A stretch of DNA of 64,000 nt from Escherichia coli. GTDB lineage: Bacteria > Pseudomonadota > Gammaproteobacteria > Enterobacterales > Enterobacteriaceae. The notes below the pieces were generated by a model that was given only the letters and a program-made list of their open reading frames with translations, searched no databases and was not told the origin of the DNA. The position numbers and the translations under genes were made by a program. The stretch lies in NCBI RefSeq assembly GCF_003334335.1, contig NZ_QOWQ01000025.1. One strand, 5' to 3'. Positions 62,395 through 63,936 of this stretch are shown here, piece by piece; the first letter of the stretch is position 1; every line of letters begins with the position of its first letter.

Positions 62395-63936
62395 ATGAGA
62401 CACTTTATCTATCAGGACGAAAAATCACATAAATTCTGGGCAGTTGAGCAACAGGATAATGAGCTTCATATTAGCTGGGGCAAAATCGGTACCCACGGAC
62501 AAAGTCAGATAAAAAGTTTTTCAGATGCTGCGGCAGCGGCAAAAGCGGAGCTTAAGCTGATTGCGGAGAAGGTGAAGAAGGGGTATGTGGAGCAAGCGAA
62601 GGATAATTCTTTGCAACCTTCCCAAACGGTAACGGGCTCTCTCAAGGTAGCGGACTTATCCACCATTATTCAGGAACAACCCTCTTTCGTAGCAGAAACC
62701 CGTGCGCCTGACAAAAATACAGATGCTGTTTTACCGTGGCTGGCGAAAGATATTGCTGTCGTTTTTCCGCCCGAAGTTGTACACACCACGTTAAGTCATC
62801 GCCGCTTTCCCGGAGTTCCTGTTCAGCAAGCAGACAAATTGACCCAATTACGTCGCTTAGCCTGTAGTGTGTCGCAACGGGATAATAAAACAGCCACATT
62901 TGACTTCAGCGCCTGTTCTTTAGAATGGCAAAACACCGTCGCCCAGGCGATCAGTCAGATCGACGGCCTGAAAACAACACAGTTACCATCACCAGTAATG
63001 GCTGTACTCACGGCACTTGAAATAAAATGCACAAGATATAAAGTGCGTGAGGATGTTATGGATCAGATCGTCCAGGAAGGCGGTCTGGAATATGCTACTG
63101 ATGTAATAATACACCTTCAACAGATTGATATTGAATGGGATTATGCGAATAATGTCATTATTATTCTGCCGTCTGGCATTGCACCTAGCTACTTGGAGCA
63201 ATATTCCAGATTTGAATTACGCCTACGTAAACATTTATCACTGACGGAAGAGTCTCTCTGGCAAAAATGTGCACAAAAACTTATTGCCGCAATTCCACAT
63301 ATTCCAGAATGGCGGCAACCATTAATTGCTTTGTTATTACCCGAAAAACCAGAAATTGCACATGAAATTGCCCAGCGTCTACTGGGGCAAAAAAAATTAC
63401 CCTCGCTTGAGTGGTTAAAAATAGTGGCGACTGATGAGCACATTCTTGCCTCATTAGAAAAATATCACGAACCATATGCCATTTTTGATGATTACTATTG
63501 TGGTGCGATATGGTCAGCCACCGTATTACAGGAGCAAGGTGTTGCAGCCCTGCCCCGATTTGCTCCCTATGCCGCAAGTGACTACTGCGCCGATGTGTTG
63601 CGTCATATCAATCATCCGTTCGCATTAACACTGCTTATACGTGTAGCCGGGCATACTAAACGCTGTCACGATCGGATGACGAAAGCCATTGCTGCGTTCC
63701 CACATGCAGCAATGGCCGCACTGACGGAACTTCTTGGGCAAAAAGAAGAGAACAGTTGGCGCATTATGCTAATGACAATGCTTATCTCACAACCAGCACT
63801 GGCAGAACAGGTCATTCCCTGGCTCTCGACACCCGCAGTTGCCGTACTGAAATCATGCCAGCAACAACTGACACAGCCCTCAAACCATGCCAGCGCCGAT
63901 CTACTGCCAGCCGTAGTAGTCTCCCATAAGCGCTAA
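62395..63936 (+). CDS. WGR-domain protein, MolR-like (possibly the N-terminal fragment of a disrupted molR)
   Basis: 513-aa ORF beginning MRHFIYQDEKSHKFWAVEQQDNELHISWGKIGTHGQ; ends 64 nt before the window edge. Confidence 0.6.
   Translation: MRHFIYQDEKSHKFWAVEQQDNELHISWGKIGTHGQSQIKSFSDAAAAAKAELKLIAEKVKKGYVEQAKDNSLQPSQTVTGSLKVADLSTIIQEQPSFVAETRAPDKNTDAVLPWLAKDIAVVFPPEVVHTTLSHRRFPGVPVQQADKLTQLRRLACSVSQRDNKTATFDFSACSLEWQNTVAQAISQIDGLKTTQLPSPVMAVLTALEIKCTRYKVREDVMDQIVQEGGLEYATDVIIHLQQIDIEWDYANNVIIILPSGIAPSYLEQYSRFELRLRKHLSLTEESLWQKCAQKLIAAIPHIPEWRQPLIALLLPEKPEIAHEIAQRLLGQKKLPSLEWLKIVATDEHILASLEKYHEPYAIFDDYYCGAIWSATVLQEQGVAALPRFAPYAASDYCADVLRHINHPFALTLLIRVAGHTKRCHDRMTKAIAAFPHAAMAALTELLGQKEENSWRIMLMTMLISQPALAEQVIPWLSTPAVAVLKSCQQQLTQPSNHASADLLPAVVVSHKR

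Follow-up and report, generated by a model that had tools for sequence, protein, structure and literature searches.

The 64,000-nt stretch of Escherichia coli DNA analyzed here (the window) ends with metG (60212–62254) and, directly downstream, an open reading frame on the plus strand at 62395–63936. The ORF starts with an ATG at 62395, ends with a TAA at 63934–63936 and comprises 513 codons, leaving 64 nt between the stop codon and the end of the window, as the first-pass annotation of this DNA had noted. An intrinsic terminator consisting of a stem-loop and a T tract (62264–62297, plus strand) sets metG apart from the molR/yehH transcription unit. A LexA-box-like palindrome, CTGGATAAAATTACAG, lies on the plus strand at 62370–62385, 10 nt upstream of the ATG, and was the sole match in the window to a search pattern that was itself derived from this site. 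A promoter scan upstream of the ORF returned no strong sigma-70 match. The 140 nt preceding the ORF were identical to those of K-12 with the exception of one SNP in the metG terminator, and the regulatory and promoter sequences are intact, the LexA-box-like site among them. The 5′ region of the gene (62250–63500) has a G+C content of 0.40–0.48, compared with ~0.52–0.54 in metG.

Elsewhere in the window, a P2-like (Peduovirus) prophage extends from ~1340 to beyond 26000 and adjoins the CyaR sRNA gene; it matched Yersinia phage L-413C, phage R18C and P2_AC1 with 96–97% identity over 82–84% of the query. This prophage accounts for the ~32 kb by which the distance from cyaR to metG exceeds that in K-12. 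The only Rfam matches at gathering level in the window were CyaR/RyeE (1238–1323, plus strand, 100.7 bits) and a TPP riboswitch (51256–51352, minus strand, 71.2 bits), and no tRNA genes were detected in it.

The N terminus of the ORF product, which had been taken for a WGR domain by inspection, matched Pfam PF05406 over aa 6–69 (62410–62601, plus strand; E=3.4e-18), and the WGR fold was confirmed. The host-encoded part of the ORF comprises codons 1–510 of a molR/yehH-type gene (62395–63924, plus strand), covering the WGR domain and a helical solenoid. The 513-aa product contains no DUF4132, a domain that occupies approximately aa 988–1173 of the intact allele (Pfam, E=1.6e-50). That allele was found in TUM18780, whose flank matches the window at ~100.0% identity over 24 kb; the gene there is 3,795 nt long, lies between metG and yehI, and encodes a protein of 1,264 aa annotated by PGAP as a ‘DUF4132 domain-containing protein’. 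A single SNP, which is synonymous, separates the window ORF from the TUM18780 allele in the first 1,531 nt.

The complete protein begins with a WGR domain and a disordered linker, continues as a long helical solenoid of the HEAT/ARM-like type and carries DUF4132 at its C terminus. AF2 models of aa 1–510 (pLDDT 83.7) and aa 511–1264 (pLDDT 91.0) placed the WGR domain at aa 1–67 and the disordered linker at aa 70–110, followed by the solenoid and C-terminal alpha/beta domains. A HMMER scan with aa 1–510 over 1.84 billion representatives returned 53 proteins at E≤1e-30, none of them a natural form of ~513 aa, the kind of homologue that, according to the first-pass annotation, would have spoken against a fragment. 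Non-fragment homologues were ~1,164–1,486 aa long, mostly 1,200–1,320 aa, and ~35 homologues at 29–88% identity were collinear with the 1,264-aa protein over its entire length, bearing out the statement of the first-pass annotation that full-length MolR-type proteins are much longer than the ORF. A separate homologue search gave only fragment clusters below 900 aa and was left out of this length argument. YehI is a paralogue, with 37% identity over aa 110–1204, and is devoid of the WGR domain and the linker. The window ORF is a truncated allele of a member of the MolR/YehH-type WGR–DUF4132 family and not a complete member.

The gene is near-universal in E. coli and its alleles diverge widely, with matches in 5,411 of 5,426 complete genomes (≥99% identity in 1,795; 95–99% in 1,257; 90–95% in 2,251; and 80–90% in 110). 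The gene order metG–molR–yehI, continued by yehK and yehLMPQ, was seen in the comparison loci L001, L002, L004 and L007; the window itself displays the metG side only.

The point at which the ORF departs from the intact gene was located by a megablast search of positions 62255–64000 against the 5,426 complete genomes. Among the top matches, genomes with an intact 3,795-nt gene aligned at 99.9% identity, but only to 63925, and the whole query was matched in a few genomes. Homology to the 1,264-aa allele likewise stops at 63925. Alignment of the window with the intact allele, an interrupted allele and a dnaJ-adjacent IS copy placed the breakpoint after ...GTAGTCTCCC (63925), from which the sequence proceeds with ATAAGCGCTAACTTAAGGGTTGAACC.... 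Positions 63925–64000 matched, in reverse complement and at 76 of 76 nt, the end of IS186A of K-12 MG1655 that is distal to insL; the transposase of the matching element is named ‘IS4-like element IS421 family’ by PGAP. In the intact gene the reading frame runs GTA GTC TCC CCT CCC TGG (V V S P P W), compared with GTA GTC TCC CAT AAG CGC TAA in the window. Codons 511–513 (H-K-R) and the stop codon therefore lie within the terminal inverted repeat of IS186. No in-frame continuation of molR, a question that the first-pass annotation had left open, directly follows the ORF; IS186 sequence begins at 63925/63926.

IS186 is an element of ~1.34 kb that encodes a DDE transposase, InsL, of ~370 aa and duplicates a G/C-rich target of ~10 bp on both of its sides. 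The presumed left copy of the target duplication, AGTAGTCTCC(C), lies at 63915–63925 on the plus strand, and is counted as 10 or 11 bp, as the C at 63925 can be assigned to the host or to the IS. It is followed by the 23-bp terminal inverted repeat CATAAGCGCTAACTTAAGGGTTG (63925–63947) and by the insL-distal interior of the element (63948–64000, minus strand), with the transposase gene expected beyond the window on the minus strand. The window thus includes one IS186 end (75–76 nt) and the left target copy only. The uninterrupted target site reads CTCCCCTCCCTGG, the opposite IS186 end reads …GTTAGCGCTTATG, and the rest of molR after AGTAGTCTCC(C) begins CTCCCTGGCTTTCG, also given as CTCCCTGG. 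In equivalent insertions of other genomes the element measures 1,334–1,337 bp and encodes a transposase with the Pfam domain DDE_Tnp_1. The break is located in a coil that separates helical blocks, just before an invariant PPW motif.

The tail of the window coincides with the end of contig QOWQ01000025.1 (GCA_003334335.1; 77,051 nt), which is among the contigs on record with the exact 513-aa product and to which the tail is identical over 11,606 of 11,606 nt with the same last base. The terminal 80 nt of the window form a multi-copy sequence, occurring in 2,144 of the 5,426 genomes on chromosomes and plasmids, with a median of 3 and a maximum of 22 copies. The edge of the window is a break of the draft assembly inside a repeat; for this reason the window stops 75 nt into IS186 and no continuation of the gene is visible. 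Exact look-up of plausible products of the 3′ fragment (741 aa from a GTG at codon 524; 693 aa from an ATG at codon 572) found none on record.

These observations make it highly probable that the ORF is the 5′ 40% of a molR/yehH gene of ~1,264 codons, cut by an IS186 whose end supplies the stop codon. IS186 (IS4 family, insL transposase) would have jumped into the 10–11-bp target AGTAGTCTCC(C) at codons 507–511, with insL antisense to molR/yehH. Translation would then pass host codon 510 into the inverted repeat of the element, gain H-K-R and end at the TAA located there, with the predicted loss of 754 residues, DUF4132 among them. Retaining its own promoter and the LexA-box region, the fragment could still be made as a protein of the WGR domain and half of the solenoid. 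Because every complete genome with this junction has them, we infer that, in this strain too, the junction leads into a complete 1.34-kb IS186 and then into the remaining 3′ 2.26 kb of the gene. The insertion would also be polar on yehI, which starts 9 nt past the end of the gene. The suggestion that the ORF may be the first fragment of a pseudogene was therefore supported, with the gene interrupted after codon 510 by IS186 and not by a lesion of the K-12 type.

An alternative in which the IS186 junction is real but marks an IS186-associated deletion or rearrangement instead of a simple insertion is unlikely, although it is the strongest of the competing explanations. One route would be homologous recombination of an IS186 in molR with an IS186 of the same orientation in yehM, which would remove ~8.2 kb, comprising the 3′ part of molR, yehI, yehK, yehL and the 5′ part of yehM. 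The substrate for such an event is present in three of the closest relatives, as TUM18780, TUM18530 and DETEC-C31 (~100.0% identity over 24 kb) carry the same-orientation yehM IS186 8.2 kb downstream, and the window displays a single IS end. However, all the interrupted loci that were inspected end to end (L002, L005, L006 and L007) were simple insertions with the target duplication intact, and other relatives at ~100% identity are without the yehM IS186. A look-up of the IS186-truncated YehM fragment retrieved 24 contigs, none of which was from GCA_003334335.1.

That the window edge is the end of a draft contig in a repeat raises the prospect of an assembly artefact, in which molR was joined to an unrelated IS186 read at a chimeric contig end. 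We consider this very improbable, as 8 complete genomes share the identical junction, as do several independent assemblies of draft and metagenome origin, and it coincides exactly with the edge of the target duplication in those complete genomes.

A genuine, naturally short WGR protein of ~513 aa would agree with the presence of the exact 513-aa product on 19 contigs, and with an AF2 model in which aa 1–510 are well folded and the break is in a coil. Yet each of the 10 such contigs whose sequence was inspected carried the IS186 junction, the last three codons and the stop codon are IS sequence, the non-fragment homologues continue collinearly past residue 510, and in PGAP annotation this CDS bears the flag ‘incomplete; missing C-terminus’. 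The junctions and the lengths of the homologues effectively refute a natural protein of this size, and the chance that it exists is negligible. Equally negligible is a nonsense or frameshift pseudogene fragment of the K-12 type with the gene continuing directly downstream, which has precedents in the K-12 lesions and in the frameshift lengths of 5 of 23 sampled full-coverage matches but is refuted as the cause here by the alignment, in which the ORF is open through codon 275 and the sequence past 63925 is IS186 and not molR.

The 5,426 complete genomes were searched with junction probes composed of 40 nt of host sequence and 75 nt of IS. The window-type junction was found in 8 genomes (G1/2, G6/7, G8, ETEC1703, ETEC1717, ETEC1718, ETEC1730 and PEC422), and a junction of the opposite orientation in 6 (ECCNB12-2, two O9:H10 strains, VL40, VL7S7 and O121 201805972), so that IS186 occupies the molR target in 14 of 5,426 complete genomes when both orientations are summed. 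At the four loci inspected over their full length, AGTAGTCTCC(C) was present on both sides of IS186 and the rest of the gene followed. In G1/2, the simple insertion consists of the WGR part, the IS4-like IS421/IS186 transposase on the minus strand and the DUF4132 part, with the target duplication flanking the element. Some IS186 copies at unrelated loci gave junction-probe matches that ran ~19 nt past the IS end at ~95% identity, and these extended matches may reflect a shared target-site preference. IS186 is also annotated, in various strains, in genes for an anti-phage dCTP deaminase, EutG, RHS and hemagglutinin-repeat proteins.

SNPs in the flanking sequence were used to group the insertions. 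Both orientations occurred in the window-like allele (window and L009 versus L007, L008 and L010–L016) and both occurred in the G1/2-like allele (G1/2 versus O121), and ECCNB12-2 represented a third flank pattern. The flanks thus point to at least four independent IS186 insertions at exactly this target, and this recurrence in both orientations makes it a minor IS186 hot spot. The flanking alleles of the window and G1/2 differ at 23 of 1,671 positions, so the insertion in the window is most likely an event separate from the G1/2-type insertion. Seventeen of these 23 differences lie within ~110 nt of the WGR-coding region (62442–62550), a clustering that suggests a recombined (mosaic) segment.

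The target consensus that SaiSree et al. are said to have reported in 2001 for IS186 is a G-run/C-run, of which the molR site fits one half. The sites compare as cgTAG-TAGTCT-CCCC in molR, GGGG-ATCACT-CCCC in dnaJ and GGGGG-AGTCG-CCCC in yehM; the palindrome of the dnaJ and yehM sites, a G-run paired with a C-run, is represented in molR by its C-run half alone. It is conceivable, though on balance doubtful, that codons 507–511 are a hot spot that has so far escaped description, one that IS186 hits repeatedly and in either orientation at a non-canonical half-site in an SOS-inducible gene for a PARP-type WGR protein, accompanied by recurrent loss of an uncharacterized, DNA-damage-linked WGR/MoxR–VWA module. 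We know of no selective phenotype for IS186 insertion in molR.

Inactivation of the gene and its neighbors is not confined to this target. As the first-pass annotation had stated, molR is fragmented in K-12: a nonsense codon at position 275 cuts it down to yehF (274 aa), and codon 949 has gained one extra G; the gene is annotated there as yehF and a yehH pseudogene. In a spread sample of 23 full-coverage matches, five genes had lengths of 3794 or 3796 nt, implying frameshifts. Within the same cluster, yehM (DUF5682) contains a second recurrent IS186 insertion at a consensus-like target, GGGGGAGTCGCCCC, seen in TUM18780 (L017:6761–8097) and in many other genomes; the IS186-truncated YehM product of 167 aa is on record in the 24 contigs mentioned above and in 59 blocks of the collection. 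The yehL gene of TUM18780 has an internal stop. In sublineage L1a of ST131, TnMB1860, carrying blaCTX-M-15, is inserted in the metG/DUF4132/yeh region (PMC9334617). On the doubtful reading given above, the frameshifts, the K-12 nonsense codon, the yehM IS186, the yehL stop and TnMB1860 would together indicate recurrent loss by selection or relaxed constraint. The window adds a further case of frequent inactivation of a near-universal E. coli gene.

In the literature, molR is counted among the genes of the LexA regulon that have a known SOS box (PMC6590174, PMC11039860), and BglJ–RcsB activates the molR promoter in K-12 (PMC3950696). Depletion of DdrO in Deinococcus strongly induces WGR and DUF4132 proteins (PMC8533742), and the Aravind group has treated WGR as a DNA-binding domain (PMC7824862). 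Pfam scans of both halves of the protein gave only WGR and DUF4132, and neither a PARP catalytic domain nor a helical regulatory domain was found. The single NCBIfam match was to a Leptospira family, confined to the WGR domain and far under the cut-off of that family, and matches in PHROGs were solely to families of unknown function and were uninformative. A search of PADLOC-DB v2 with six proteins (MolR-like, YehI and YehL/M/P/Q) matched zero families at E≤0.01, and assignment to a catalogued defence system was dropped on this result. Our best guess is that the MolR-like protein is a DNA-damage-induced scaffold with putative nucleic-acid binding through its WGR domain, possibly acting together with YehI and with YehL and YehP, which are MoxR/VWA proteins. 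The truncated product could be made under SOS control lacking more than half of the protein, and the surviving LexA-controlled fragment of WGR and half-solenoid might retain DNA-end binding or interfere with it.

For annotation purposes, the ORF is best labeled as a fragment of a pseudogene, molR/yehH::IS186, and not as a 513-aa protein. The name ‘molybdate metabolism regulator’ is historical and conveys little about a gene that the literature assigns to the LexA regulon and whose product has a PARP-like WGR domain. The locus represents an ordinary pseudogene disrupted by IS186, of which RefSeq genomes already contain annotated cases, and the sole mildly new point is the recurrent use of the exact molR target by IS186. 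The analysis documents a small IS186 hot spot and holds nothing that would surprise a specialist.

Comparison with known systems places the window among the following cases. Its closest counterparts are the interrupted WGR/DUF4132 pseudogenes annotated in RefSeq for G1/2 (H4P46_RS08820/RS08815/RS08810), ETEC1703, 1717, 1718, 1730 and PEC422, which are identical to the window in junction, target duplication and IS orientation and matched the 115-nt junction probe at 99–100%. G1/2 differs from the window in its flanking allele, as described above; its IS186 copy (L002:7672–9005), at 1,334 bp, is 3 bp short of the 1,337-bp copies at the other measured loci, and the 3′ part of its gene is additionally frameshifted. 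molR of K-12 (yehF b2115 and the yehH pseudogene b4499) is the same gene at the same metG–molR–yehI locus and is also a pseudogene, but it was broken by point lesions and not by an IS, whereas the window ORF is open to codon 510. TnMB1860 in ST131 L1a is a further mobile element that struck the same chromosomal region and is tolerated by a successful lineage, but it differs both in the element, which is a large resistance transposon, and in the insertion event (PMC9334617). With PARP1, PARP2 and PARP3, the MolR-like protein has only the WGR fold in common. [quoted passage not shown] 2001 and where insertion is likewise recurrent and site-specific, occurs in either orientation and uses a G/C-rich target with a duplication of ~10 bp; unlike the lon promoter hot spot, the molR target lies inside a coding sequence and presents only half of the palindrome.
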